In this document: positions 3,145 to 47,174 of the stretch, in pieces
Layout of the letters: every line of letters begins with the position of its first letter
How positions within the stretch are numbered: position 1 is the stretch's first letter
IMG/VR virus record: IMGVR_UViG_3300031951_000243
Span: 1 to 50,552 of that record
Origin: a virus
Lineage: Duplodnaviria; Caudoviricetes
Reading direction: 5' to 3' (one strand)
DNA: 50,552 bases
Notes under the pieces: model-generated
Databases searched by the model: none
What the model was told of the DNA's origin: nothing
The model's input: only the letters and a program-made list of their open reading frames with translations
Translations under genes and position numbers: made by a program

Positions 3145-4263
3145 ATGTCACGTATCAATCTCAACACACGTGTATCACTCAAGCAGGCCAAAGCAGCAAT
3201 CGCAGCAATCGGTGCGCAGCGCACCGTCCTCTTGCAGGGCGAGCCGGGTATCGGCAAGTCGTGGCTACTCAAGGAACTCGCGGCTGAGTTTCCCACGCAT
3301 CGCCCGGTCTACATCGATTGCCAACTGCTACTGGATCAGGGTGACTTCTTCTACCCCTTCATTGCCGACACTGACGGCGGCAAGATCGCAGAGCGTGTGA
3401 TGCTCGAGGACTTTAACTTTCATAGCGATCAACCGCTGATCATCATGTTGGATGAGATCGGCAAGGCAAACAAGGCGGTAATGAACGTGCTGCTGACGCT
3501 GATGTATGACCGGCGCATTGGCTCGGTGCCGACACCCGAGGGCAGCATGGTGTTCGCGACTACTAACCTCAGCACCGATGGTGTGGGTGACTTCGTTGCA
3601 GCGCATGCACGTAGCCGGGTGATCCGACTCGAGGTGTCCAAGCCGCATGCCGGGTTCAACCCTGATAACACTGTCGATCCAGATTCATGGGGTCACTGGG
3701 CACTGGGTAACGACATTGCCCCTGAGTTGATCGCGTGGGTCAAGAGCAAGCCCGAGTGCTTGGACAGCTATCGCAACTACACCGCAGGTGAGAAGTGGGG
3801 CAATCCGTATGCGTTCCATCCTACGCAAGGTGCTGAGTCTTATGTCTGCCCACGCTCACTGCATGCAGCGTCTGATGTGGTCAAGCAGCGTGATGTGCTG
3901 GGACATGAGCTGACGTTGTCGCTACTGGCGGGTGCCGCAGGTGAGGCGTTTGCCCGTGACTTCTCTGCATGGTTGCTGGTCAAGGATCGTGTGGCTTCGA
4001 TGGATGCGGTGGTTGCTTCGCCTGAGTCGGCGGCGGTGCCAGAGAATCACGATGCGGTTGCGCTGTGTGTGATGGTGTTTAGTCTGGTGGCTGCAACGAC
4101 AGACAAAACAATCGTGCCGTTCACCACCTACATGCAGCGTCTGCCCAAGGAATATCAGGCGATGTACTCGCGCTCTGTGATGGCGAGTGAGGCCAAGCAG
4201 AAGGTAGCAATTGCATGCGAGAAGTTCCGCAAGTGGGCAATGGACAATCACTGGATGTTTTAA
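3145..4263 (+). CDS. MoxR-like AAA+ ATPase
   Basis: Walker A GEPGIGKS, Walker B IIMLDE, sensor ATTN, and CPRS motif. Confidence 0.9.
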   Translation: MSRINLNTRVSLKQAKAAIAAIGAQRTVLLQGEPGIGKSWLLKELAAEFPTHRPVYIDCQLLLDQGDFFYPFIADTDGGKIAERVMLEDFNFHSDQPLIIMLDEIGKANKAVMNVLLTLMYDRRIGSVPTPEGSMVFATTNLSTDGVGDFVAAHARSRVIRLEVSKPHAGFNPDNTVDPDSWGHWALGNDIAPELIAWVKSKPECLDSYRNYTAGEKWGNPYAFHPTQGAESYVCPRSLHAASDVVKQRDVLGHELTLSLLAGAAGEAFARDFSAWLLVKDRVASMDAVVASPESAAVPENHDAVALCVMVFSLVAATTDKTIVPFTTYMQRLPKEYQAMYSRSVMASEAKQKVAIACEKFRKWAMDNHWMF

Positions 4264-4272
4264 GGGGGCGTT

Positions 4273-5469
4273 ATGAGTTTATCTGCTGAACAACGGTTGA
4301 CCCGCTCTGTCGTGTGGTTGATGGGCGAGCCGAAGTACGCTGCGTTCTCTGGCCTGTACATGATGGGCAAGATCGAGGTCAACGATACGGTGCGCACTGC
4401 ATGCACCAACGGACGTGATGAGTTCTACGGACGTGCATTCGTGGAGTCGCTGACTGATGAGGAGGTGCGTGGTCTCAAGCTGCATGAGACGTGGCACAAA
4501 GCAGGGCGGCACTTCATGGTGTGGAAGCATCTCGCTGATGAAGACTCCAAGCTGGCAAACATGGCGATGGACTACGTGATCAATCTGTTTATTCATGACA
4601 GTGATCCGAAGGGCGAGGATGTGCGTCTACCCAAGGGTGGGCTGCTCGATGAGCGGTTCCGCAACATGGACATCGGTGAGGTGTACAAGGTACTCAAACA
4701 GGAGAAAGACAATGGACAGGGGAACGGTAAAGGGCAAGCAGGACAGAACACGCCGGGTGACGGCGGCGAGGGCGATACCTTGGATGAACATGACTGGGAT
4801 TCTGCGAGTAGCCTCAGTGCAGATGAGCAGGACAAGCTGGCAACAGAGATCGACGAATGCCTCCGGCAAGGTGCGCAAGTAGCAGGCAAGCTGGGTGCGA
4901 AGATGCCACGTGGGCTCGATGAGATTCTGCAACCCAAAGTAGATTGGCGTGAGCAACTGCGTGACTTCGTAGGTGCATTCGCTGCGGGTGCTGACTTGCC
5001 AAGCTATCGCAAACCTAACAGGCGCATGATGGGTGGGGGGCTGGTGATGCCGTCACATATCGCTGAGACTGTCGGCAAGCTGGTGGTTGCAGTGGATGCA
5101 TCGGGGTCAATCATGGGGGCTATGCTGACTGCGCTTTTGTCAGAGGTGAACAGCATCTGTGAAGTGGTCAAGCCCGAGTCGGTCGAGCTGTTGTACTGGG
5201 ACACCGAGGTCTGCCAGCATGAGACGTACGATCAGAACAGCTACGCTGGTCTGTTGACTTCGACTAAGCCACGTGGCGGTGGTGGCACCGATCCGCAGTG
5301 TGTGGTGGACTACATGAAGCAACGTGCTATTCGCGCTGAGTGTGTTGTCGTATTGACTGATGGGTATGTAAGTAGCTGGGGTGCAGATTGGCCGTGCCCT
5401 ACATTGTGGTGCATAACAGAGAAGCGCAAGGTGTCCCCTGTTGGACGTAGCGTACATATCGAGCTGTAA
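4273..5469 (+). CDS. Metallopeptidase-like + VWA domain protein (DUF2201-type)
   Basis: TACTNG, HETWH (HExxH), MIDAS DASGS, GGGGT and LTDG motifs; adjacent to the AAA ATPase. Confidence 0.85.
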   Translation: MSLSAEQRLTRSVVWLMGEPKYAAFSGLYMMGKIEVNDTVRTACTNGRDEFYGRAFVESLTDEEVRGLKLHETWHKAGRHFMVWKHLADEDSKLANMAMDYVINLFIHDSDPKGEDVRLPKGGLLDERFRNMDIGEVYKVLKQEKDNGQGNGKGQAGQNTPGDGGEGDTLDEHDWDSASSLSADEQDKLATEIDECLRQGAQVAGKLGAKMPRGLDEILQPKVDWREQLRDFVGAFAAGADLPSYRKPNRRMMGGGLVMPSHIAETVGKLVVAVDASGSIMGAMLTALLSEVNSICEVVKPESVELLYWDTEVCQHETYDQNSYAGLLTSTKPRGGGGTDPQCVVDYMKQRAIRAECVVVLTDGYVSSWGADWPCPTLWCITEKRKVSPVGRSVHIEL

Positions 5470-5492
5470 ACAATTTACCTTGGAGAACTATC

Positions 5493-6371
5493 ATGGCTAT
5501 TCAAAACACTTCTGTATTGGTTGACCTGCACATCACTGCATGGACTGGACGCAAGCTCGACAAGAAAGTATCGGGCGAGATCGACGCAAGCAAGAACACC
5601 AAGACCCGCGCTGGTAATTACCACAAGCACCTGCTGGCTGGCACTGACAAACTCGAGACCGTTCAACGTCTGGCTGGTGCGCTACGTACGTGGCACCACG
5701 AGAACACTCTGCCTTGGTCGGATGGTGGCTCGCGTCTGCTGCCGATGAAGAACTTCTTTGACTACAAGCAGGAGCTGTCAAAGCGTCAGCGCGAGTTCGA
5801 CGCAGCGGTGCAGGACTTTCTGGATCACTATCCAGAACTGGTTTCTTCTGCTGCCTTCCAGCTTGGCGCGTTGTTCAATCGCACCGATTACCCAGAGGTC
5901 GAGGACATCAAACGCAAGTTTTACATCGGCTACGTGTTCATGCCTGTACCAACCGCTAACGATTTTCGCATCGAGACTACCGATGAGACGATCAAGGAAC
6001 TGCAAGCGCAGGCTGATGCTGTGGTCAATGAGCGTGTGGCTACTGCGATGAAAGAAATGTGGGATCGCTTGCATGACCAGCTCACGCACATGTCGGACAA
6101 GCTGACTGATCTGGCGCAGCCACGTGTGAACAAGAAGGGCGAGGAGCGTTACAACCAAGTGTTCCGCGATTCGTTGGTGACCAATGCTATCGAGTTGTGT
6201 GGGCTGCTGACTCGACTCAACGTGACCAACGATCCGAAGCTGGAGCAGGCACGTGCGCATCTCGAGAAGACCATCAGCGGTGTGACGGCTGAAACACTGC
6301 GCGACGATGATCTGAAACGTGCCGAGGTCAAGGCTGAGGTAGACGCAATCCTAAAAGCATTTGAGTTCTAA
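5493..6371 (+). CDS. DUF3150-like helical protein often found with AAA/VWA pairs
   Basis: WTGRKLD, TLPWSDxGxRLLP and LNVTNDPxL motifs; gene context. Confidence 0.6.
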   Translation: MAIQNTSVLVDLHITAWTGRKLDKKVSGEIDASKNTKTRAGNYHKHLLAGTDKLETVQRLAGALRTWHHENTLPWSDGGSRLLPMKNFFDYKQELSKRQREFDAAVQDFLDHYPELVSSAAFQLGALFNRTDYPEVEDIKRKFYIGYVFMPVPTANDFRIETTDETIKELQAQADAVVNERVATAMKEMWDRLHDQLTHMSDKLTDLAQPRVNKKGEERYNQVFRDSLVTNAIELCGLLTRLNVTNDPKLEQARAHLEKTISGVTAETLRDDDLKRAEVKAEVDAILKAFEF

Positions 6372-8247: not shown

Positions 8248-8913
8248 ATGGATATGAAAGTCAAAGAAACAGCAGTCGTTATTTCCGCACCAAAGTTCAA
8301 CACCGTTGAGATTCTATTGCAGGGCACTGCCCCGCTGGTGGTCGCACGTTTCAGCAAGAAGGTTGACCTGATGATGAAGATGGCGCAGGGCACCACGGCT
8401 AAGAGTAAGAAAGAACGCAGCGCCCGTGACTATGACAAAGAAGCGGATGACGCACGTTACTACTCAATGGAGGGTTGGGAAGGTGTAAACGCAGCAGCAT
8501 TCCGCGCAGGGATGATCAGTGCATGCCGACTGGTCGGGTTCAAGATGACGCTGGCAAAGCTGTCGGTGTTTGTCGAGGCTGATGGTTGGGATAAGCAGGA
8601 TGGCATCCCACTGGTGCGCGTGTATGGCAAGTCCGAGACCTTCACTGCACACACCAGAAACGCTACAGGTGTAGTGGACGTGCGTAGCCGTCCGATGTAT
8701 CGCGACTGGGCTATCAAGTTACGTGTTCGCTTCGACGCAGATCAGTTCACCGCGCAGGATGTGTACAACTTAATTGCACGTGTTGGTGGGCAGGTCGGTC
8801 TGTGCGAAGGTCGCCCAGATTCCAAGTCTTCTGCGGGTTGTGGCTTCGGTACGTTTGAGGTGGTGCCGAATGACCGCCAGAAGGAAGTCAGCAAGAAGTT
8901 CGGCATTAAGTAA
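8248..8913 (+). CDS. Solo Cas7/RAMP-superfamily-like RNA-binding protein; candidate effector of the adjacent array
   Basis: N-terminal strand ILLQGTAPLVV; helix GVNAAAFRAGMISA, equivalent to the RAMP IPGSSLKGALR motif; C-terminal glycine-rich loop GGQVGLCEGRP...GCGFGTFEV. Sits immediately upstream of the repeat array. Confidence 0.75.
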   Translation: MDMKVKETAVVISAPKFNTVEILLQGTAPLVVARFSKKVDLMMKMAQGTTAKSKKERSARDYDKEADDARYYSMEGWEGVNAAAFRAGMISACRLVGFKMTLAKLSVFVEADGWDKQDGIPLVRVYGKSETFTAHTRNATGVVDVRSRPMYRDWAIKLRVRFDADQFTAQDVYNLIARVGGQVGLCEGRPDSKSSAGCGFGTFEVVPNDRQKEVSKKFGIK

Positions 8914-9078
8914 ATGTGCAAAGCGCCCGGATTCATAAGGACGAGAGGGAAGCTGGCATATCTGATCTTTAACTCTAGATAGACGTAGGGGCGCGAGAAA
9001 ATTCACTATGTCTATCAGCTCTGTAACGCGAAAGGGGGCGCGGAATATGCCTAACCCCCTAACAATCCCAAGGTGCGT
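8914..9078 (+). ncRNA. Structured leader of the array
   Basis: Stem 8978-8988/9006-9016 (11 bp, one G:U); GGCATAT 8955-8961/ATATGCC 9045-9051; AGGGGG 9033-9038/CCCCCT 9055-9060. Confidence 0.45.
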
Positions 9079-10263
9079 GGCGTGGCAGGTGGCGTGGGGA
9101 CAGGCGGCGCGCGGTGGCGTAAGGTGGGATTCGGTTTGGTTTGCCACGGTAAGGCAGGTGCGGCACGGCCCGGCCCGGTACGACGCGGTTGGTTCAGGTT
9201 CCGGTGTGGTCGGGTACGGTAAGGCAGGAGCGGCGTGGATCGTTGTGGTTTGTTCCCGTAGCGTCAGGTATGGTGGGTTAAGGCAGGTCCGGCGTGGTAG
9301 CGCAGGGTAGCGTATGTCTGCGTAGCGATAGGTGCGGTGAGATGGGGTAAGGCAGGTCGGGTTAGGCTGGGCTTCGTTCGGTGCGAAATGGTGCGGTGAG
9401 GCGGGGTGAAGTAAGGCAGGACCGGCAACGCCCGTTTAGGTTCGTTCGGGCCGGGTTTGGTTGGGTAAGGCAGGTATGGCATGTCATGGTCAGGCGAGGT
9501 GAGGTTGGGTTCGGTCCGGTGAGGTAGGGCAGGTATGGATTGGCATGTTCGCGTTCGGTGCGATGGGGTATGTTCGGGTAAGGCAGGTCTGGCTCGGCAA
9601 GGCTCGGTTGTGTATCGCAAGGTCTGGTAAGGCAGGTGAGGATCGGCACGGATAGTTCAGGCGCGATCTGGTGGGGTAAGGCAGGTTAGGCAGCGCAGGG
9701 CAAGGTGCGGTATCGCATGGTCAGGTTTGGATTGGTAAGGCAGGTGAGGTGTCGCAAGGCAAGGTTAGATGTCGTGCGGAATGGTAAGGCAGGTATGGCA
9801 AGGTGCGGTGCGTTGCAGTACGGAGTGGTTGGTTAAGGCAGGTGTGACCCGGCTCGGCAACGCGAGGTTTGGTGCGGCGAGATCAGGTAAGGCAGGTGAG
9901 GCAGCGTATGGACGGGCACGGTATGGTTGGGTGTGGTAGGGCAGGTATGGCAAGGCTCGGCAGGGTTAGAGAGCGGTAAGGCAGGTCAGTTCAGGCGAGG
10001 CTTGGTGGGGTATGGCGCGGTGGAATGCGGTCTGGTTCGGCGGGGTGAGGTGAGGCAGGTACGCCTACGCGTGGTATGGGTGCGTTCGGCTGGGTGAGGT
10101 GAGGCAGGTTAGGCGGGGCAACGTGGCGTTAGGCGTGGTGCCGTGCGGTCTGGTAACGCAGGTGAGGTGTGGCACGGAGCGGTACGGTCGGGCGGGTTGA
10201 GGTCCGGCAGGTTAGCTCTGGATGGGCGAGTTCTGGCGAGATAACGCAAGGTGAGGCAGGTAA
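9079..10263 (+). repeat. Non-coding GGY-NN pentamer array of 21 units delimited by GGTAAGGCA(GG); putative guide-RNA array (CRISPR-like but not a canonical CRISPR)
   Basis: Delimiters start at 9079, 9148, 9218, 9277, 9346, 9410, 9464, 9523, 9577, 9626, 9675, 9734, 9783, 9832, 9886, 9935, 9975, 10049, 10098, 10152, 10201 and 10250. Periods are 49/54/59/64/69/74 (5n+4) except one of 70 and one of 40. Confidence 0.92.
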
Positions 10264-25074: not shown

Positions 25075-25147
25075 CACTCACTGCTTTCTCCAAGGGAAGT
25101 TGAGTTCGCCCCCGAGTGCTTCTCCCCTTTGCACCGGGGGCTTTTTT
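25075..25147 (+). ncRNA. Candidate two-hairpin sRNA with anti-RBS loops, ending in an intrinsic terminator
   Basis: Hairpin 1 (ACTCA/TGAGT) encloses TTTCTCCAAGGG. Hairpin 2 (GCCCCCG-A-GTGC/GCAC-CGGGGGC) has loop TTCTCCCCTTT and is followed by T6. Confidence 0.55.
25108..25147 (+). terminator. Intrinsic terminator at the convergence of the two genome arms
   Basis: GC-rich stem 25108-25119/25131-25141 followed by TTTTTT. Confidence 0.85.
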
Positions 25148-28100
25148 ACATCCTCGCCATCTGCTTCATCCTCGGTATATTGTAGGCTTCAAGGAATTCT
25201 TTCTCTACCCGCAAAATCTCATCTGTCTTTTCCCGTTTTTCTGCCGGAGATAGATCAGAATCATTAGCAATGATGTTGCGGTACTTCCGTAGCTTGGCTA
25301 GGTGGTCCTCAATTTTATTGACTGCACCTCTCATAGCATACAGCTTCAGTTTGTCTTCGGTCAGATATTCCTGCAATTCTTCTGTACGCCCTTCGCGCTT
25401 GAAGGTATTAACTGAGTTAACCACCTTGTCAACGCGCTCACGGAATTCGTAAAACTCTGTCTTGTACCCACGCCCAGTATCGTCATACATGAACGTCTTG
25501 ATCAATGGCAGCTTGTTGACAGGTTTAGCTATCCGATTGGGATCACCTACCGCATCAGTCACATCCAGTATCACCCCACCCACGGTGCCAAGATAGCCAC
25601 GCATTAGATAGTCAACCTTCATCGGCGATAGCCCAACATACCCAAACAGCTTAGCTAGTTCTGACGTGTGGTCGTTGAACTGTAAGTAAGTTTCCTTACC
25701 TGCCATGTTGATGCCGACAATCGGATTATCCGTAAAGAACGAATAGTTCGTAGCTACCTCAATAGCAGGCTTGAGCAACTGCGGCGTAAGGTTGACCCCA
25801 CCATAGGCGTTGATGGCAGCATTTCGCATGCTCTTCATGAAAGTCGTAGCGTCTACTGGGCGGTCAGTGCCCTCACGTGCAATCGCCTGATAGATACGCT
25901 CTGGGATAACTTTGAACAAGAAACCAATTTCAGGTGCCACAGGCAGTTTCATACCCGTGCCGGGGATGATGAAGTTGAAGTCACGCTCACGGTCATCCAG
26001 ACCTTTGTAGTCATCATCGTCGCCCACCAACGCAGCGTAGAGCATGGATAGTGCAGCAACCTTGGCACCGGTGCCGAAGAACAAAGCCATAGCAGCCTTG
26101 CGATCCTCCATCGCCAACCCTTTACCTTGGATAGTGCGATACAGCACGTCCATACCTTGGATGTAGGCGTTCATGAAGGGGACAATCTGACGCAGGATAC
26201 GTACTGTCTGCCCGTTGCCGGAAGTCTTGAAGTTGATGTACTCCTTAGCACGATGGAAAGCCAGCACTCGGTCGCCGGTCTCTTTCATGGTCTGGTCGTA
26301 GATAGCAGCACGTACCGCCATGTCCGCTGCCAGCGAGAAGTCTTCCAGCTTGTCCCAGAAACGCTTAATAGCTGCGCGGTCTTGCAGCCCATGCCGCTCA
26401 CGCACTTTACGCATGACGTGATCAGGCATCCCATCATAAGCGCCGGTAATACCTAGTCCCTGAATATCGGATTCGCTGCCGGTGACTGCTTTGTAGAAGT
26501 TACCCAGCACCTGCGTGGGTAGCGAGAACGGATGCTTCACGCCCGACAAGAACATCGCACGTACCGTATCCTGTACAAGCTGACTAAGCGCAAAGGTCGG
26601 CATGTGGGTAACGAAGCTACGTAGCCCAGTAGCAGCCACGGTAAACGCTTTTAATGCAGGCCCTGCTACATCTACCACGTTGGAGAACGCCGCCAAGTCT
26701 TCTTGGTTCTGCAAGCGGAATGCCACGCGCTCACCATCGCGGTAGGCAAACACTACCAAGTGCCGGTTGTTTTTCAGCTCGCGGTCAACCTCATCCTGTG
26801 TCTTTAGCTCATCAGCAGATGGCAACGCCTCAAGCGTCTTGATAGCCGCACGGTTCTTCAAACCAGAGCGCATCGCCCAGATAGTGTGCCCCACCATGTT
26901 GTCCATCACGTTGCGGATTTCTTTGGAACTACCTTCCTTGTCCAGTGTCGGAAGGCTAGTCAAATGCACGTTACCGGTACGAATCTTAGTAAGCCCGTCT
27001 ACCTTATTGTCTTCTTCCTCGATACGCGTCCACGGCACATAACCAATATTGTCTTTCCAAGCCTGCGCTTCTGCTGGGCTTAACCGCCCCATAGCTACCA
27101 AGAAGTCGGTGATGCCTTCGTTGTATTTAGTGAATACGTCAAACGCTTGCTTCAGTTCTGGGAACTCACGCATCGCCTCGAGGCCAGCATCGATCTCTTC
27201 CTGTGAAGCACGGACTTGTACAATTTGATCACGAAGTAGTTTAGCCGCACGCTTATTACCTTTGGCTTCCGCAGCATCGGCTTGCTGGCGCAAAGTTTCT
27301 GCACGTTTGTTCAGCTCATTCGCACGTTGCGCGATAAACGCACGATGTGCAAGAGTGATGGCGGTATTAGCCGATCCAAGTTTCGCACCTAGTTCTTCCG
27401 TGATGATTTCAAACACACGGTCAAGACTAATCTGCTGCCCATTTTCTACGCGGTCATAGACTTCGACTAACCCATCTTTACCAACACGCACACCACCCCT
27501 ACGCATCAGTTGATCAGCTACACCAGTCGCTTCCTGTGCCTGTTCGTTCAGGATGTCAGGGCGGATATTGCCTAATGCATCGGTTACTTTGTTTTGATAG
27601 GCGGCTGCAATCTGCTCTTTGACCGGAGCGTCTTTATCTACCACTGCCTGTCGAACTGCCATCGGCAGACCTTTGGTTTTACCTGCAAGCAGCGTTACGC
27701 GGTCTAGTAGCGTCTGGTCAACATCAGGCTCCGGCTCATTACCGATACCCTTCATGCGATCATTCAGCGCAGCAGCACGTTGCCCTTCGGGGGTTAGTGG
27801 CTCTTCCTTTCGACGGCGGTACAGGATGCGGCCTTCTTTCTGACCGTACGCGCCTGTATTGAACGGAGACTTTAGCTGGCTGCTGTTGTAGACAGCGAGG
27901 TTCTTGCGACGGCCTTCAAAAACGTAGAAACCATCGAAGCCAGCAAATCGAATAGCTTCCTGCACATCTGGGGATTCAATAGCCCCCCAACTACCCCGCT
28001 GAATGTCTGCAAACGTGCCTGCATCAAGAGAAATCGTACGCTTTAATTCCGCGAGGTGCGCTGGGTTATCGTAGTCAAATGGCTTTTGTGCGCTGACATA

Positions 28101-31100
28101 GACCGGGATAATGTTTGCACGACTGGGTAACTGATTTAACAATATCTGATTTAACTCAGACTCGATTGAATATGGGGATAACCCATAAGAAGCATCAACT
28201 TGATCTAAATCTCGTGTAATTTCAGCCGCTTCTTTTTTAGTAATGTTGCCATTTGCTAATGCAAGCCGTGTAGCTTCCTTAATCCACCCCGCACGTTGTT
28301 CAGGAGTAGCTTGATTAAAAAGCTGCGTAATCATGTAATTTTCGCTGGCGTGGCTAAACGACCTAGCAAACGCTGGCGAGTCTGTAACAAAAATAGCATT
28401 CGCCTGCTTAGGGCGAAATTCTTCAATATCCTGAGCCGTGCCGTGATACATCAGCTTCGGTGAGCCATCTGGATTGCGGACAACGGAGTTGCCGAACCAT
28501 TTCTTGAATGCATCGGTGCCGACACGGTACAGGGGCTTGCCTTTAAACGCAGCAACACCTTCAGCTTTCGGGCCACCTGCAACAACAAACCGCTGTGCGT
28601 TAGCCAGCAGCTCACGAACTTCAGTGTCGGTTACTTTGCTTGGGTTAAACCCAAGGCGGCGGATGAATTGGCGGATTGCGTTAAAGATGCGCTGGATGGC
28701 GTTGTTATACACCCCAGCTTCTGCCATTTCAGCAAGCACTTCTTCGACGGCGGTGTGCTTATCCAAGCCTTCCGCTATTTTTGCTTTTGCTGCTTCGCGG
28801 ACTTTAGCGTTGCCGTTGTAAATGTCATCCATCACTTTGCCGTAGGTATTGCCCAATATGGACTGAATACCAAAGTGGCCTAACGCTTCGTGGGTTAGCG
28901 TCAGCACCGCTTCTTTTACGTTCGGGATGTTGTCAGCAATTAAATAGACGGTCTGCGTGTTCGGGTCATACACCCCCGGTGCGCTAAGTGCATTGTCCCT
29001 GAGCATCTGTTGCAGCAACTGTGGCGGCAGCTCTTGGATGTCCTGAACAACTTCAGTCTTGGGTGCGTTCTTCCAGCGGGCGATGATGCCGTTGACAACC
29101 TTCTCAACCGCAGACTTGGGCATGCCCTCATCGATTGGGTTCTCTGGCGTACGATATAGCGCCCGTTTAGTTTCCTCGGCAATACCCTCTTCTTCCTTAC
29201 GAGCAGCCATCTGCGTTTTTGCAGCAACAGCGGACGGGGTGCCGGGTACAGTCTTGGTAACTTCTCTAGTTACTTCTGGCGCAGCTTGGCGAGTCAGATC
29301 ACCAGCTTTTACTGCTTTACCACGCACGAAGTCCATGACAGCGTTCTGATTGTCAGGGACGATGAACAGTTTTGCACCGTCCATCTGCTTCTCGTAGTTA
29401 TCTAGCAGGAACTTGTACGTCGTCTTGTCTACATTGATGCAACCGAAAGAGTAGCGCGAGTCTTCTGGGCTATCTTTAGCCAGCGCCTTTTGTCGGGCTT
29501 GTGCATCCGACATCTTAGTGTAGACGGAATGGAATAGCGTGATGGAATATTCACCATCAATTGCTTTATCCAAAACGAATACTTTGCCAAAGTCATAATC
29601 ACCAGCGGTCACCGCTTCGCCTTTGCTACGGGTCGCGTCACGCAGGCCCATAGTGAACAAACCAGCAGGAGTAAGGCGGTTAGCTTTTACATCCGTGTTG
29701 CCCTTGTAGTAATCCCCGGTCTGCAAACCAAGCAGTACCTTCTTATCAAGGATAGGTTGCCCATTAGCATCGAACACAAACACACGGGCGTTTGGCTTGT
29801 CGGTGAGAACGAACAGCTTATTGTTCTTCTGAAGGTCTGCTTGGATAGCAGGCATGATGTTGGCATACGCTTGTTGCGCAGCGGGGGACATCCGCGCCTT
29901 TACTGCTTCTGGCACCTGAGCAAGAACCTGCTCAACTGTGGTTACGTTCTTTGGAATCGCTACCTGATAGCCGGGGCCGATGTAGTTAGGGTTCAGAATG
30001 ACGGCAGCAGCCAGCACAGAAGCATGCAATTTCTTGATGATGCTGCGGATTGCTTTGTCAATCGCCTGTGCGCCTTTGGTCGCAAACTTGACGATGTCTT
30101 CACGAACCTTGGCAAGGAACGCTGGGCTGTTTACCGGCTCGCCATAATGCTCGGCAAGCTTTTGCTGTTCAGGCGATGAAAGTTGTAAAACAGCAGGTGC
30201 AACGGTCTCTTCGTCGATTACACGGAACTGCCCTTCAATCACGTTGCTTAAATCTTCAAGCGCGACTGAATTATCGTATGGGTCGGCTACGTTACGAACA
30301 AAATCCACCGCTTCTTTGCGGGTGTAGCCATTAAACACAAGTTGCGAAATAGCATTGTCTGCACTGACTCGATTTTCTGCTAGTGCGGGAACGCCAGCAG
30401 CTTCAGCAGTAGTCGGTGCTTGTATTTCTTGGGCAGTGGGAGGTTGTACAGGAAACGGTACATCCGGAGCAGCAGGTTGTTCAGTAGGGGTCGCACTTGG
30501 AGGCACCGTTAATGCAGTTGACTGTACTCCCGCTCCGACATCAGGCTGTTGAGCAGCCCCTCCAGTAACATCCACTCCACCGGGGAGAGGTGCTGTAATT
30601 CCTCCGGGGGGTGCGGCTCCGCGTTCGCCAGCCATTGCAGTGCTAGGCTCAGCTGCTGGTTCGACAAGCTCTGTAGGTTGGATGACATCGGTTGCCTCCT
30701 TTGCTTTTTTAGCACGTGGCTTTCTTGGTGGGCGCAGATCAAGTTCACCTTGCTCCATGAACACCGGGCTGCTCAAAAAGCTGTTAACCCCTTCGATCAG
30801 CTTGGGGCTACGGTTAGGGTTGTTAGCAAAATCAGTCAGCACTTCTTGAACTTCGGCGCGTTGGGCGGGATCAGCCAAGTCCTTGCCCATAATAGCTTCA
30901 CGCAGTCTCTTATTAGTCTTGCCGATACCCATCGCCTTGAAGTCAGCTTCGGTAACCGGGCGAGTTTCAACCGCCTCCTCCATCGCAGGTGCAGGTTGAA
31001 TGTACTGTGGACCAAGACGGAACCCCGGCTCTTCTTCAGGAACTACTAGTTCAGGTGCTGGCTGCGACTCAAACAGTGCGCGTTGCTCGCGCTCGTTCAT

Positions 31101-32630
31101 CTGTAAGAACGCACGGTCAGCGTCTGTAATTGCCTGACCGGCACTCAGTCTGCTTTGGATGTCCTGTATGCGCTGTTGCCTGAAAAACTCTGTCTGTTCA
31201 GGTGTGATACCTGCGGGGGCAGCAGGCGTTTCTCCAAGCACAACACCTTCACCTGTGCGCTGGCGCGGCATGACAGGAGCTTCAAAGTCCAGCCCCATCT
31301 GCCCCGGTTCTGGTGCAGCACCCGCACGTTCTGCACCTTCCAAACCTTTAGATAGTTGCTTGATCTGTTTTTCCAGACCGGCACGGGCAGTGTTTAGCTC
31401 GTTTGCTTGGTTGAGGATAGCGGTCTTTTGTTCATCAGAAGCTGCGGTCTCGAACTGCCCTTTCAGGCGGTCAACTTCACGCATCAGCACATCATGCTGA
31501 TCCCGCAACTCAGTAATCTGGAACAGCCGATTCTGACGTTCAGCTTCTTTCTCTTCAGCTTCACGGTATGGCTCTGGTGGTGCGCGGAACCCTTCGTATC
31601 CTTCACTCAGCTCAGGCACTTGCCCAAGCGGTAGTTGTTCTCCTTTTCCTGCGGTGTACGCGGCCTCTTTTCTAGCAGCCTCTCGATCTTCTGCTGCGTA
31701 TTTTTCCCGCGCAACCGATCTTTCTAACGCACGTCCGGGTATAGAAATACCCCCGCCGAGGATGGCACCACCAATAAAGTTGTCGAAGTATTCTTTACGT
31801 GCCTGCGCATCTGTTAACTGAAGGCCCGCTTGCGCACGCTCGAACACCTGCTGCGCGGCTTCTGTAAGTCCTTCGGTGCCCATCGCCTTTAGCGTAGATG
31901 GGCCGTAAGCTTTGACTGTATTTACAGTGGTGCCGATGATACCGTTGCGCACAATATGTGCAGCTTCTTCACGGGTAAGCTCTCTACCAGCCTGCTTAAA
32001 AATACGTTGAATGCCGGGGATGTATTTCAGACCAATTGTATCTAGCGCAGCTTGAGGTATGGACGCGCCAACCGCAGCCATCGCGTTCACGTCATTTGGC
32101 TTTATCCCTTCTTCTATTTGCCGAGAAATATTTGAACCAGTGAACTGCGCAGCCGATGTACCAAACGCAGCAAGTGCAGCAGAACCTATCCCGGCAACTG
32201 CAAGTTCAGGCGCGGCAACCGCAGCCGCAGCCCCCGCAGCAAGTGGTGCCCCCATGTAGGCAAGCGACTGCCCCGCCAATCCTTTTACGTACTCAAACGG
32301 GGCTTCAGTAAGTTCTGGCTGTTTGTAGATTTGTGCTGCTTTTTCTTTATATTCTTTACGTGCAGCTTCAGCACCTGCTACTCCAAGCGGAATACCAAGT
32401 GCCGCAACGTCCCCTTTTAGGCTTTCAAACCCACCTTTTAGTCCAGCAAAAAATCCAGTTTGCGGACCTTTCGCGCCCGGTGCCCCCATCAAATGCTGAA
32501 TAAGCTCCGAGTCGTTATACCCAGCTTGGCGAGCGCCAGTAACATCAAATTTTTTCTGCTGCCCAAGATAGTCAACTACCTCTGGCAGAGTGTAACCAGC
32601 GCGGAGAGCACCTTCGACATCAAATGCCAT
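25146..32630 (-). CDS. Giant polyvalent internal-virion/ejection protein (L,D-transpeptidase-like, zincin metallopeptidase, ADP-ribosyltransferase-like and LPD38-like regions)
   Basis: TPAGLF..FHSVY..SFGCINV; HEALGH..EEVLAE; PKLMYHGT..IFVTDSP..A; C-terminal IVPFMNAYIQG..NYSFFTDNPIV. Confidence 0.8.
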   Translation of the reverse strand: MAFDVEGALRAGYTLPEVVDYLGQQKKFDVTGARQAGYNDSELIQHLMGAPGAKGPQTGFFAGLKGGFESLKGDVAALGIPLGVAGAEAARKEYKEKAAQIYKQPELTEAPFEYVKGLAGQSLAYMGAPLAAGAAAAVAAPELAVAGIGSAALAAFGTSAAQFTGSNISRQIEEGIKPNDVNAMAAVGASIPQAALDTIGLKYIPGIQRIFKQAGRELTREEAAHIVRNGIIGTTVNTVKAYGPSTLKAMGTEGLTEAAQQVFERAQAGLQLTDAQARKEYFDNFIGGAILGGGISIPGRALERSVAREKYAAEDREAARKEAAYTAGKGEQLPLGQVPELSEGYEGFRAPPEPYREAEEKEAERQNRLFQITELRDQHDVLMREVDRLKGQFETAASDEQKTAILNQANELNTARAGLEKQIKQLSKGLEGAERAGAAPEPGQMGLDFEAPVMPRQRTGEGVVLGETPAAPAGITPEQTEFFRQQRIQDIQSRLSAGQAITDADRAFLQMNEREQRALFESQPAPELVVPEEEPGFRLGPQYIQPAPAMEEAVETRPVTEADFKAMGIGKTNKRLREAIMGKDLADPAQRAEVQEVLTDFANNPNRSPKLIEGVNSFLSSPVFMEQGELDLRPPRKPRAKKAKEATDVIQPTELVEPAAEPSTAMAGERGAAPPGGITAPLPGGVDVTGGAAQQPDVGAGVQSTALTVPPSATPTEQPAAPDVPFPVQPPTAQEIQAPTTAEAAGVPALAENRVSADNAISQLVFNGYTRKEAVDFVRNVADPYDNSVALEDLSNVIEGQFRVIDEETVAPAVLQLSSPEQQKLAEHYGEPVNSPAFLAKVREDIVKFATKGAQAIDKAIRSIIKKLHASVLAAAVILNPNYIGPGYQVAIPKNVTTVEQVLAQVPEAVKARMSPAAQQAYANIMPAIQADLQKNNKLFVLTDKPNARVFVFDANGQPILDKKVLLGLQTGDYYKGNTDVKANRLTPAGLFTMGLRDATRSKGEAVTAGDYDFGKVFVLDKAIDGEYSITLFHSVYTKMSDAQARQKALAKDSPEDSRYSFGCINVDKTTYKFLLDNYEKQMDGAKLFIVPDNQNAVMDFVRGKAVKAGDLTRQAAPEVTREVTKTVPGTPSAVAAKTQMAARKEEEGIAEETKRALYRTPENPIDEGMPKSAVEKVVNGIIARWKNAPKTEVVQDIQELPPQLLQQMLRDNALSAPGVYDPNTQTVYLIADNIPNVKEAVLTLTHEALGHFGIQSILGNTYGKVMDDIYNGNAKVREAAKAKIAEGLDKHTAVEEVLAEMAEAGVYNNAIQRIFNAIRQFIRRLGFNPSKVTDTEVRELLANAQRFVVAGGPKAEGVAAFKGKPLYRVGTDAFKKWFGNSVVRNPDGSPKLMYHGTAQDIEEFRPKQANAIFVTDSPAFARSFSHASENYMITQLFNQATPEQRAGWIKEATRLALANGNITKKEAAEITRDLDQVDASYGLSPYSIESELNQILLNQLPSRANIIPVYVSAQKPFDYDNPAHLAELKRTISLDAGTFADIQRGSWGAIESPDVQEAIRFAGFDGFYVFEGRRKNLAVYNSSQLKSPFNTGAYGQKEGRILYRRRKEEPLTPEGQRAAALNDRMKGIGNEPEPDVDQTLLDRVTLLAGKTKGLPMAVRQAVVDKDAPVKEQIAAAYQNKVTDALGNIRPDILNEQAQEATGVADQLMRRGGVRVGKDGLVEVYDRVENGQQISLDRVFEIITEELGAKLGSANTAITLAHRAFIAQRANELNKRAETLRQQADAAEAKGNKRAAKLLRDQIVQVRASQEEIDAGLEAMREFPELKQAFDVFTKYNEGITDFLVAMGRLSPAEAQAWKDNIGYVPWTRIEEEDNKVDGLTKIRTGNVHLTSLPTLDKEGSSKEIRNVMDNMVGHTIWAMRSGLKNRAAIKTLEALPSADELKTQDEVDRELKNNRHLVVFAYRDGERVAFRLQNQEDLAAFSNVVDVAGPALKAFTVAATGLRSFVTHMPTFALSQLVQDTVRAMFLSGVKHPFSLPTQVLGNFYKAVTGSESDIQGLGITGAYDGMPDHVMRKVRERHGLQDRAAIKRFWDKLEDFSLAADMAVRAAIYDQTMKETGDRVLAFHRAKEYINFKTSGNGQTVRILRQIVPFMNAYIQGMDVLYRTIQGKGLAMEDRKAAMALFFGTGAKVAALSMLYAALVGDDDDYKGLDDRERDFNFIIPGTGMKLPVAPEIGFLFKVIPERIYQAIAREGTDRPVDATTFMKSMRNAAINAYGGVNLTPQLLKPAIEVATNYSFFTDNPIVGINMAGKETYLQFNDHTSELAKLFGYVGLSPMKVDYLMRGYLGTVGGVILDVTDAVGDPNRIAKPVNKLPLIKTFMYDDTGRGYKTEFYEFRERVDKVVNSVNTFKREGRTEELQEYLTEDKLKLYAMRGAVNKIEDHLAKLRKYRNIIANDSDLSPAEKREKTDEILRVEKEFLEAYNIPRMKQMARM

Positions 32631-40073: not shown

Positions 40074-41156
40074 TTACGTCTTGATGATGAAGTTGATGCC
40101 GAGATATGGAGGCATGTTTGCGTTAGTGCCGGATGAACCTTCTGTGCTGTTAGATACAGAAATCCCAGTGCCCACGGTTGTAGTTGCCTGTGTTTTGTTT
40201 GTCGCATCCTGTCGATCACCACCGCCCCAAGCAGGGTTTGTATTGCCAGCGTTAGAGCCACGCCAGACATTTAACGTCATGCTATGCGAGTGCCCCGGAT
40301 CAGTGACCGTTGCTGTGTGGGTGTGGCTTACAACAATCGCGTCTTTGGAGCCGCCTGTAGCGCCGATTGAAGCAGCGATAGTGTTTGCCCCAATAGGCAT
40401 CCTGTCCCGATAGTCGGGTAAATTAAAGGTTGTAGTCGTGTCTCCTGCGCCAAACGTCGTACCAATCACAGCAAACAAAGCTGCATAGGTGGTGCGAGAT
40501 ACCGCCGCACCGTTACATAACAGCCATCCAGTAGGCGCGGTACCAGTGGACCACATAGTAAGTACCCCAGTAGGAACACCACTAGCAACCGCTGAGTCTA
40601 CGTATTGTTTGGGAGCCGCTTGTAATGCGAGTGTTGGATTAGCATTAAGCGTTACCGTGCTGCCAAATGTAGCTGCACCAGAAAAAGTAGTTGCCCCGCC
40701 AACACTAAAACCGCCTACAACCTGATTTAATTGTTCAACGATATTTGTGCCGTCCGAGCGCAAAAGAACCGATTTGCCTGCGGGAACCGCAACACCCGTA
40801 CCCGCTGCCGTAGTATTGCCAAGAACTGTAGAGCAGTAGACTGTAGCCGTATAGGTAGAGTCTGTATTACGTACAACGTACAACTTAGTAACCGGGGGTA
40901 CATAAACATTAAAGTTAGCGGGAGAACCCCATGCACCTATTGAGAGGTCTATCGCAGCACACCGTGCTTCATCCGCCGATCCGTTTGATGCAGTTAAAGC
41001 TTGATTAGCAGAGGTAACTGAAACTGAAGCCCGTCCAGCAATAGCATCTTCAATCAGCGTGCCAAGATTAGTGTTGGTCGTAGTTCCCCACGTACCTGAC
41101 TGTTCGCCGTTGGCAATGAGTTCGATCCGTAGATCGGGAGAGTATGTACTAGGCAT
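40074..41156 (-). CDS. Tail fibre with tail-collar domain
   Basis: GEQSGTWG N-terminus; PTGWLLCNGAAVSRTTYAALFAVIGTTFG..FNLPD; NMPPYLGINFIIKT. Confidence 0.88.
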   Translation of the reverse strand: MPSTYSPDLRIELIANGEQSGTWGTTTNTNLGTLIEDAIAGRASVSVTSANQALTASNGSADEARCAAIDLSIGAWGSPANFNVYVPPVTKLYVVRNTDSTYTATVYCSTVLGNTTAAGTGVAVPAGKSVLLRSDGTNIVEQLNQVVGGFSVGGATTFSGAATFGSTVTLNANPTLALQAAPKQYVDSAVASGVPTGVLTMWSTGTAPTGWLLCNGAAVSRTTYAALFAVIGTTFGAGDTTTTFNLPDYRDRMPIGANTIAASIGATGGSKDAIVVSHTHTATVTDPGHSHSMTLNVWRGSNAGNTNPAWGGGDRQDATNKTQATTTVGTGISVSNSTEGSSGTNANMPPYLGINFIIKT

Positions 41157-43938: not shown

Positions 43939-44304
43939 TTATACCTCCGGTTTTGGGTACTTTGCTTTCACCGCCAGACAGTCCGCTATGTACTTAGCTA
44001 TTTGCACCTGATCACCTTTTACAACCCCATCAAGATAATCCGCCATTGGTGGGTATTCCATAGCCCGCTTCTCAGCGTATGTCCATTCTAGCTCTGGTTC
44101 TGGCTCGGATTCTGGGTCTGACGGCGGGTCTTCAAACACCCATTCACCATTCCATTTTGCTAACTTGCCTTCAGGTATATCTGGGATAGAGGCATCAATC
44201 GTCCCAGCGGGGTATAAATAAACGCCCGGCTCTAATGGAGATTCATCGGCGACTGTCACCCCAAAAAAATAACCATCTTCATCTAGCTGAATTACTTGTT
44301 TCAT
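43939..44304 (-). CDS. Tail-fibre assembly/chaperone-like protein
   Basis: ADESPLEPGVYLxP..WNGEW; R..EYP..DYLD..VKAKYPK; follows the fibre genes. Confidence 0.7.
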   Translation of the reverse strand: MKQVIQLDEDGYFFGVTVADESPLEPGVYLYPAGTIDASIPDIPEGKLAKWNGEWVFEDPPSDPESEPEPELEWTYAEKRAMEYPPMADYLDGVVKGDQVQIAKYIADCLAVKAKYPKPEV

Positions 44305-44312
44305 AATCTACC

Positions 44313-45257
44313 CTAAAATTTAATACACGCTAACAAAGCCACGTTAGTTGGTCGAGATTCGCTCCCTGAAGGGCTACTATTACCTTGGTTCGCATCGCCA
44401 GTTGCTATACCCGAAAGGTTAGGTTTGAAGTTATTAATATTTATTGGGTTGTAGTTCCCGGATATAAAGTTTGAAGCGGATAAGTTTTGGGTTCTACTGG
44501 CGCTATTAATAACATAATGTCTATGCGACGTAATACCAGCACCCTGATTAGACCCAAACCCGCGCCCCGGATCAAGTCCACGTCCATCGTCCCACGAACG
44601 TATAAATCGCGCCCTAAGATCAGGTACATTAAAACTACTACCTCCACCACCGAATGTATAACCAATAGCAGCAAATAAATTAGGATAAGTAGCTGTTGAA
44701 AGTGAAGCCCCGTTTGCCTTCAGATAACCCGTGGGGGGTGTACTCGCCGCGTAGAAAATAACATCCCCAGTTGAAACCGAAAAATTAGCACTATTCGCCC
44801 ATATAGGCGCACCTGCGCCCCCAGAGGTAAGTATTTGCCCAGACGTACCAGCAGCTAACAACGAAAATACATTTGTACCTGACGCATACAATAATTGCCC
44901 CGTAGATGCCCCAAGCCCAAACGTATCTATAGTTGATCCATCTACACTCACCGAACGTGCTGCGGTATAGGTTACAAATACATCTTTAGTGCCGCTGGAA
45001 AAATTTGTCTTAGTCGGCGCACCTGCACTTGAAGCTAATACCGTGTCACGAGAAAGTGTTGTACCAGAAGCGGTGTACGTACCAATACCTACTTCCCACT
45101 CCGACGTACCCTGCCCAGCTATACAATAATAGGTGGTGTTGCCATCACCGATAACAGTAAAAGACTGAAAGCCCGTAACTGCGCCAAGAAGCGTAACGGC
45201 CCCTGTACCTGTAGTGGTAGTAGTTTCTTTTACACGATCCGTTAGTACTAAAGGCAT
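44313..45257 (-). CDS. Tail fibre / collar-domain protein, paralogue 3
   Basis: [13 protein letters not shown] N-terminus; collar PTGYLKANG..FNVPDLR..RxWDDGRG; [13 protein letters not shown]. Confidence 0.85.
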   Translation of the reverse strand: MPLVLTDRVKETTTTTGTGAVTLLGAVTGFQSFTVIGDGNTTYYCIAGQGTSEWEVGIGTYTASGTTLSRDTVLASSAGAPTKTNFSSGTKDVFVTYTAARSVSVDGSTIDTFGLGASTGQLLYASGTNVFSLLAAGTSGQILTSGGAGAPIWANSANFSVSTGDVIFYAASTPPTGYLKANGASLSTATYPNLFAAIGYTFGGGGSSFNVPDLRARFIRSWDDGRGLDPGRGFGSNQGAGITSHRHYVINSASRTQNLSASNFISGNYNPININNFKPNLSGIATGDANQGNSSPSGSESRPTNVALLACIKF

Positions 45258-45269
45258 CTTTATATATAG

Positions 45270-46217
45270 TTAAAATTTAATACATGCAAGTAAAGCGGTG
45301 TTTAATGGTCTAGTTTCGCTAGTTCCAAAAGCACTACTAAGACCATAGTTAGCATCGCCGGTAGCTACGCCCGAAAGGTTTGCTCTAGTGTTATCTCTAT
45401 TACCGGGGTTATAGTCCCCAGACCAAGCATTTATATCACTTAAGTTCTGGGTTCTACCGGCGCTATTAACTGCATAATGGCGGTGAGCTAAAAAATCACT
45501 ACCCTGATTAGAACCAAACCCACGACCGGGGTCTAGCCCGCGCCCATCATCCCAACCACGTATAAACTGCCCTCTAAGATCAGGTACATTAAAACTACCG
45601 CCCCCACCGCCAAACGTATAACCAATAGCAGCAAATAAATCAGGATAAGTAGCTGTTGAAAGTGATGCTCCGTTTGCCTTCAAATACCCTGTTGGAGGTG
45701 TGCTAACTGCGCTGTATGTAATGCTGCCCGCAGGTACAACATATGATGAAGAAGTTATCCATGAAGGTGCACCCGCCCCGCCAGAAGTAAATATTTGCCC
45801 TAACGCCCCAGCAGCTAACAACGAAAATACATCCGTACCAGAGGCATATAGCAGTTGACCCGCAGATGCTCCGAGCCCAAACGTATCTATAGTTGACCCA
45901 TCTACATTTACTGAACGGGTAGCTGTATAAGATACGAATACGTCTTTAGTTCCGCCAGAAAAATTTGTCTTAGTCGGCGCTCCCGCGCTAGATGCTAATA
46001 CAGTATCACGAGACAACGTAGTTCCAGAAGCTGTGTAAGTACCAATACCTACTTCCCATTCATTAGTACCTTGACCTGCTATGCAATAGTAGGTGGTGTT
46101 GCCATCGCCAATTACCGCAAAAGATTGAAACCCTAAGACCGCACCAGCAAGCGTAACAGTACCAGTACCAGTTGTAATGGTAGTTTCTTTTATGCGATCT
46201 GCTAGTACTAAAGGCAT
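45270..46217 (-). CDS. Tail fibre / collar-domain protein, paralogue 2
   Basis: Same architecture as its neighbours. Confidence 0.85.
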   Translation of the reverse strand: MPLVLADRIKETTITTGTGTVTLAGAVLGFQSFAVIGDGNTTYYCIAGQGTNEWEVGIGTYTASGTTLSRDTVLASSAGAPTKTNFSGGTKDVFVSYTATRSVNVDGSTIDTFGLGASAGQLLYASGTDVFSLLAAGALGQIFTSGGAGAPSWITSSSYVVPAGSITYSAVSTPPTGYLKANGASLSTATYPDLFAAIGYTFGGGGGSFNVPDLRGQFIRGWDDGRGLDPGRGFGSNQGSDFLAHRHYAVNSAGRTQNLSDINAWSGDYNPGNRDNTRANLSGVATGDANYGLSSAFGTSETRPLNTALLACIKF

Positions 46218-46229
46218 ATTTATCTACTG

Positions 46230-47174
46230 TTAAAATTTAATACACGCAAGTAAAGCTACGTTAGTTGGCCGAGACTCACCACCGCCTGCGGAACTCATTA
46301 GACCAAAGTTTGGAGTACCAACTACGCCCGCGAGAACAGGCTTAAAATTATCGTTATTTATCGGGTTATAAAACCCGGATAGAAAATTTGAAGCAGATAA
46401 ATTCTGAGTTCGAGAGCCGTTGTTTACTACGTAGTGAAGGTGGAAAGCATTATCACCACCTTGGTTTGTTCCGAATCCCCGCCCCGAATCAATCCCCCGA
46501 CCATCATCCCAAGTTCGTATAAATTGCCCCCTGAGATCGGGAACATTAAAACTAGCCCCACCCCCGCCGAACGTATAACCAATAGCGGAAAATAGATTGG
46601 AGTAAGTAGTTGTTGAAAGTGATGCTCCGTTTGCTTTTAAATAGCCAGCGGGCGGCGTACTAGCGGCAAAACACCAGACAGTCCCCGCAGGCACACCATA
46701 CGATGAAGCATTAGCCCATGAAGGGGCTGCGGTCGAATTAGAAACTAAAAATTGCCCAGACGTGCCAGCAGCTAGTAGCGAGAATACATCTGTACCTGAC
46801 GCGTATAGCAATTGACCAGCAGATGCTCCTAATCCAGCCGTATCTATGTTTGAGCCGTCAACATTTACGGAACGCGAAGCAGGGTAAGTTACAAATACGT
46901 CTTTAGTCCCACCTGAGAACGTAGTCTTAGTCGGCGCACCTGCACTCGATGCAAGTACGGTATCACGGGACAGTGTTGTACCGGAGGCTGTATAGGTGCC
47001 AATACCCACCTCCCACTCGTTAGTACCTTGACCTGCTATGCAATAGTAGGTGGTATTGCCATCACCAATAACAGAAAAAGACTGAAAGCCAGTTGAAGCA
47101 CCGAGAAGCGTAACAGTGCCAGTACCATTAGTGGTAGTCGTTTCCTTAACACGATCCGCTAATACCAACGGCAT
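46230..47174 (-). CDS. Tail fibre / collar-domain protein, paralogue 1
   Basis: Same architecture as its neighbours. Confidence 0.85.

Follow-up and report, generated by a model that had tools for sequence, protein, structure and literature searches.

A 21-unit staggered VIPR array in a phage genome, with units that match foreign integrase, DNA polymerase and ATPase genes under a one-base-skip code

Introduction

VIPR, described for the first time in 2026, is a CRISPR-related system. Its hallmarks are non-coding GGY/NN (YNNGG) repeats, about 9-16 per guide, whose NN match foreign DNA on either strand when one nucleotide, at the wobble position, is skipped; its Vap protein is predicted to bind DNA or to be a nuclease (10.64898/2026.04.26.720920). 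In that work the legend of fig. S18 pictures staggered vrRNA arrays as individually processed RNAs, the small-RNA confirmation in the text covers the ribozyme-spaced and single-guide layouts only, and natural targets are reported for types II, III and V only (10.64898/2026.04.26.720920). A SUSP1 guide that silences a satellite recombinase is described in the accessible part of a later report (10.64898/2026.10.15.759431). Our literature search returned no VIPR paper beyond these two and 10.64898/2026.04.26.720927, and the word 'staggered' is absent from the accessible text of 10.64898/2026.04.26.720927 and 10.64898/2026.10.15.759431.

Here we analysed a 50.5-kb virus record, the whole of which we call the window, and found a system that belongs to the already described VIPR kind in its staggered layout. 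As in staggered-array VIPR, a phage-borne vipr gene is accompanied by one partner gene and by GGY/NN units (7-14 repeats here) with a wobble skip, and neighbouring guides overlap by 1 nt, which gives a 5n+4 period. With the type II VIPR of SUSP1 and P. fulva the locus shares a homologous Vipr, the same code and a guide against the recombinase of an integrated element. In contrast to SUSP, in which each of the 3-4 guides has a structured tail of about 40 nt, the units in the window abut and have a 9-nt constant end; the structured 3' tail on every guide that defines type II, and that SUSP2 has, is thus absent from the window. The RAMP fold with thumb and G-loop is shared with class 1 CRISPR-Cas RAMPs (Csm3/Cas7), but there is no repeat-spacer array: constant and variable bases are interleaved with a period of 5 nt, the code is non-contiguous, and reading with skip 0, as for contiguous class 1 spacers, gave no target enrichment.

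Results

The features of the locus are collected in Table 1.

Table 1. Coordinates of the VIPR locus in the window and of the units with assigned targets.
Feature	Position	Strand	Basis
vipr homolog, putative 221-aa stand-alone RAMP (Cas7-like) protein	8248..8913	+	Homology to SUSP1 Vipr; predicted fold
Unusually long leader with predicted pseudoknot	8914..9083	+	GGCATAT at 8955 with ATATGCC; GGGGG at 9034 with CCCCC
Staggered vrRNA array	9084..10259	+	21 units of (GGY-NN)n + GGCA; pentamer parsing, per-position entropy
Likely guide, P4-like integrase (PIWxxKTETA), antisense strand	9227..9285	+	18/20 in L108 and L183; beats 60 shuffles
Likely guide, tyrosine integrase (SAYLQxLLL), antisense strand	9286..9354	+	20/24 in L310, beats 60 shuffles; 18/24 in L373 integrase
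Likely guide, tyrosine integrase (KPSAIAEKHYR), antisense strand	9355..9418	+	18/22 in L310
Likely guide, P4-like integrases (RIPA[ED]RMKM), antisense strand	9532..9585	+	Exact scan
Likely guide, motif A of family-A DNA polymerase of mobile islands (QQEFGIAGALSGD), sense strand	9984..10057	+	26/26 in L100
Likely guide, phage AAA_24 ATPase motif (YGKGYVAAL), sense strand	10107..10160	+	Exact scan of unit family
Conserved partner gene (vap candidate), 154-157 aa	10272..10745	+	Homolog after array in relatives

The array is built of pentamers with a one-base register shift

The original prediction, made from the letters of the window, described 21 units with about 217 pentamers and lengths quantised at 5n+4, and reparsing returned the same picture. 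A first GGCA boundary occupies 9084-9087, and the stretch 9088-10258 contains 21 units, each of 7-14 pentamers and together of 217. The 5n+4 rule is followed by 18 of the 20 periods measured from unit end to unit end and by 19 of 21 once the first boundary (period 69) is added, the exceptions being 70 and 40. GGTAA, given as the usual last pentamer, closes 12 of the 21 units, and the tetramer is GGCA in 20 and CGCA in one. Entropy in the 5-nt register was 0.68, 0.78, 1.23, 1.94 and 1.98 bits at positions 1-5, as expected of a constant triplet and a variable dinucleotide. The claim that positions 4 and 5 vary freely held at inner pentamers (3.7-3.9 bits per NN) and failed at the last pentamer, where NN is mostly AA (2.78 bits). 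GGY pairs at a lag of 5 numbered 93, against a mean of 10.5 and a maximum of 22 in 500 dinucleotide shuffles, and elsewhere in the window we saw only two isolated four-pentamer matches of the GGY/NN kind. Tandem Repeats Finder reported only four short fragments inside the array, and an Rfam search of the window returned no family.

The array is G-rich and skewed, and short open reading frames cross it on both strands, features that would suit a degenerate minisatellite or a coding region of low complexity, with no role as guides. We consider this explanation extremely improbable. The homogenisation by slippage that the original prediction had named as evidence against itself was not found: adjacent NN were identical in 224 of 3078 cases across arrays (7.3%, with 7.2% expected), and the window by itself was slightly above expectation (17/159, or 10.7% against 7.1%). 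Among the 19 window units that parsed cleanly, any pair has at most 4 NN in common in register, in line with the claim that no units repeat. The -1 shift is moreover fixed in 39 arrays, the array is tied to vipr, and the explanation is refuted by the target enrichment in foreign genes that is specific to a skip of one base.

We next compared related loci. We collected 48 viral loci and parsed 46 of them, leaving out L047 and L048, in which the gene is cut by the contig end. The comparison with related phages that had been proposed as a check gave a GGY/NN array in 46 of 46 parsed loci, directly 3' of the vipr homolog in 45 and after the partner gene in L045. Together with the window, and after removal of 8 duplicates, these make 39 distinct arrays, among which the 21-unit array of the window is the largest. 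Register shifts in the 39 arrays were of -1 in 399 of 414 cases, and the closing tetramer was GGCA in 352 of 405 units (38 arrays, L045 dropped). For six of the 19 window units that parsed cleanly, other arrays contain relatives with at least 6 common NN, at different ranks. The proposal that GGCA marks unit boundaries is borne out by this reappearance of related units at other ranks in the arrays of other phages, by the retention of the -1 shift and by the decoding of single units to single target sites. Its further suggestion, that these points may be processing sites, would fit the published drawing of staggered arrays. Divergence between homologous guides was 17.7% for the triplet and 5.7% for NN, figures biased by the choice of pairs through common NN. 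Since a 40-nt unit with an extra base occurs both in the window (9944-9983) and in L010 (7661-7700), its off-register base is inherited. Among the assembled contigs of three metatranscriptome runs (5-6% of words), five short ones overlap vipr, its partner and the flanks, and none covers the array.

In a GenBank cyanophage, Cy-LDV1 (BK059895; L053 3621-4590), we noticed vipr, a staggered GGY/NN array, the partner and a second array, all unannotated.

The array lies between a Vipr homolog and a conserved partner

By sequence and structural model, the 8248-8913 product is a stand-alone RAMP homologous to Vipr, with a predicted RRM core, thumb and G-loop. A phmmer search matched it to SUSP1 Vipr (36pp_D) at E=5.5e-4, and a profile of 85 sequences did so at E=2.7e-7, the sole PDB sequence match of note; hhalign of the Vipr profile with the SUSP2 homolog gave 95.7% over 173 columns. 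The model has a pLDDT of 92, and its top-ranking folds are all RAMPs, including Csm3 (Z 10.2, rmsd 4.2, 147 aligned); the fold libraries end in April 2026 and no Vipr chain was among the matches listed. Identity to SUSP1 Vipr is about 23%. Arg148 in the thumb and Arg189 in the G-loop vary little or not at all across 85 homologs and align with SUSP1 R138 and R179, which touch GGY according to the accessible part of the cryo-EM work (10.64898/2026.04.26.720927). The G-loop DW of SUSP1 differs, being EG in the window: W178 corresponds to Gly, and D177 to Glu (Ala in the consensus of close relatives). The family is large, with 4708 matches and 1948 clusters at 50%, and Vipr matched no Pfam or NCBIfam family.

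The locus, which is virus-borne, is minimal and has a single conserved accessory gene, a vap candidate. A partner homolog lies within 200 nt 3' of the array in 44 of the 45 related loci with room for it, and also adjoins the vipr homolog in mycobacteriophages and Cy-LDV1. For the partner, no Pfam or NCBIfam family scored above cut-off, nuclease families included, and an Atlas search gave nothing informative. The partner model reached a pTM of 0.44, with a fold search returning generic helical matches only (Z up to 7.2), and we detected no similarity to the partner of SUSP1 or to the SUSP2 gene adjoining vipr.

Between vipr and the array lies a gap of about 170-174 nt, against 6-23 nt in most relatives. 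The leader that fills it resembles one in L008 (10568-10720), where the 7-bp stem carries two double-sided changes. A long leader with a predicted pseudoknot occurs in 2 of the 39 distinct arrays, and the motif is present in only 2 viral contigs. The leader matched nothing in Rfam, in phage records or in five related records, and its MFE z-score of 0.52 indicates that it is not unusually stable.

Units read with one skipped base spell foreign genes

We decoded the units with the published one-base-skip rule, leaving out the near-constant NN of the last pentamer. Read in this way, the NN of 6 of the 21 units spell a site in foreign DNA. The skipped base falls on the wobble position of the codon, so that what a unit encodes is a protein motif and not one allele. 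Scored on 34 island loci, four of the 21 units beat all 60 shuffles: 9227 (18/20), 9286 (20/24), 9355 (18/22) and 9984 (25/26). For the 9984 family, a 10-NN pattern had 4 exact matches in viral contigs, each of them in frame on motif A of PolA, and an 11-NN version had at least 120 in metagenomes and at least 120 in genomes; among the matches listed, 242 of 244 sites have the context D[WYF]xxQQEFGIA, and two further NN on the 3' side that no pattern included (GG, GA) are both matched at 166 of the 244. Patterns for the 9984 and 10107 families were picked because these units recur in relatives. The 10107 family gave at least 120 matches, with 120 of the 120 fetched in the sense frame and the listed contexts all being GYGKGYVAA of AAA_24 proteins; all 18 bases of the full window unit match in 69 among the matches listed, and one target example scored E=1.6e-53 with Pfam AAA_24.

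Patterns for 9532, 9355 and 9419 were picked after partial integrase matches had been seen. Unit 9532 had 60 matches, with the antisense frame longer in 60 of 60 and all listed contexts reading RIPA[ED]RMKM, and a 10-NN scan with unit 9355 had a single match, KPSAIAEKHYR (20/22). The one match of unit 9419 has stops in both frames and was rejected as chance. The remaining 15 of 21 units have no firm target: three gave suggestive partial matches only (9586, 14/16; 9792, 14/16; 9419, 15/18) and twelve gave none.

An unseeded test, from which 10 seeded guides had been removed, placed 306 unique guides on 244 loci. Skip 1 gave 174 matches, while skips 0, 2 and 3 gave 20, 18 and 26; one locus can have up to 12 guide matches. 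On 182 further loci, 34 guides matched at skip 1 (about 5 of them from seeded families), against 2, 6 and 3 at the other skips, and the guides of relatives matched more integrase motifs and genes beside AAA_24. Skips 0, 2 and 3 were scored on the fetched loci only. For self-targeting, no skip-1 match at E<0.01 was found in the window or the 48 related loci; two skip-2 matches at that threshold, from 316 guides under 4 rules, were discarded as chance. A tblastn search of the window with three target proteins returned no match, and its own PolA differs at motif A. These results indicate that the pentamer-repeat units likely act as guide RNAs.

The strands of the targets also bear on what the complex may do. 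In the library searched, the solved folds nearest to the model are type III Csm3/Cmr subunits, and the partner has no assigned function, which would leave room for a complex that destroys or blocks RNA or DNA, with the partner as effector, instead of repressing transcription. We regard this as improbable, since targets are found on the sense strand (PolA, AAA_24) as well as on the antisense strand (integrase), a pattern that suits DNA binding, the partner matches no nuclease family, and the nearest sequence match of the RAMP protein is the solved SUSP1 Vipr. Transcription repression by a DNA-binding complex is the reading we follow below.

Guides of related phages tile an integrase-PolA island

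The guides of relatives tile an island of about 5 kb with a P4-like integrase, two small ORFs, a PolA of about 580 aa, a small HTH-like ORF and an ORF with an HGGxSTG domain. It was found at L068 440-5750, L108 7258-12721, L247 1-3528 (in a Limnohabitans genome), L120, L181 and L305. The island PolA is rare (3/401, 5/127, 4/301 and 4/55 genomes searched), and an integrase lies within about 6 kb of PolA in 25 of 67 long loci (three queries). The module thus sits in varied elements across phyla. The viral contigs searched with the island PolA held no confirmed relative, and a literature search on the island found no paper. We infer that the island is a satellite, possibly an undescribed one. The guides mark a small integrative island with PolA as a probable parasite of phages. 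Because of where the multi-guide matches fall, the host is probably a freshwater betaproteobacterium, and the matched elements would be ones that this phage meets.

The window further encodes PolA, an SNF2 helicase, a DUF927 protein and tail-collar genes, and a Pfam scan of 24 window proteins found no cas gene. In the region 43939-47174, three paralogous tail-collar genes of 314-315 aa stand next to each other (44313-47174), and a fourth lies at 40074-41156. The minus strand at 25146-32630 encodes a 2494-aa polyvalent protein with ART-PolyVal and LPD38 domains, and upstream of the locus (3145-6371) stands a trio of MoxR-like AAA, DUF2201 (peptidase + vWA) and DUF3150 genes.

Discussion

The array, set between a RAMP-fold vipr and a conserved partner, is very probably the guide store of a phage VIPR system, which likely silences rival mobile elements. 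If the system works as SUSP1 does, the array would be transcribed together with vipr, one Vipr protomer would take up each pentamer with GGY hidden and NN presented, and the resulting filament would bind double-stranded DNA, blocking transcription. The one-base slip at GGCA|GG, with its shared G, may end one filament and start the next and is probably a cut site, and the near-constant GGTAA-GGCA end would take the place of the structured tail of SUSP-type guides. A likely role is to keep resident integrative islands from excising or replicating, through the integrase and PolA targets, and to hamper co-infecting phages through the AAA_24 target.

Alternatively, the transcript could stay uncut, with several Vipr filaments on one long RNA and the slip serving only as insulation. 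No structured tails, promoter-like sites (0 found) or ribozymes lie between units and no nuclease is evident in the locus, but staggered arrays have been drawn as individually processed RNAs (10.64898/2026.04.26.720920) and the constancy of the first and last pentamers is reminiscent of a cut-site motif, and we judge an uncut transcript unlikely. Cutting at the slip is also part of a wider proposal, which we put forward tentatively and hold to be somewhat doubtful as a whole: that in a freshwater phage clade the staggered VIPRs serve as a broad-spectrum memory for protein motifs. Its tail-less guides, cut by Vipr or the partner at the one-base slip, would tile the integrase-PolA-HTH-HGGxSTG island, which would be a satellite of these phages not described before, and would also strike at the replication module with AAA_24 in rival phages, a single guide thereby covering scores of unrelated elements.

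To the described staggered VIPR this analysis adds the PolA-island and AAA_24 targets, the largest of the sampled arrays and clade-wide support for skip 1 with controls. The 1-nt-skip code is thereby extended to a distant, tail-less, staggered VIPR, and guide-target pairs are at hand for questions of staggered-array processing and guide acquisition. With 21 guides in units of 49-74 nt, the array may amount to a natural multiplexed silencer. Homologs of vipr (33%) and of the partner lie side by side in Mycobacterium phage Pippy (L497 1354-2831) and in 24 other mycobacteriophage records, and such cultured mycobacteriophages offer a tractable bench model.
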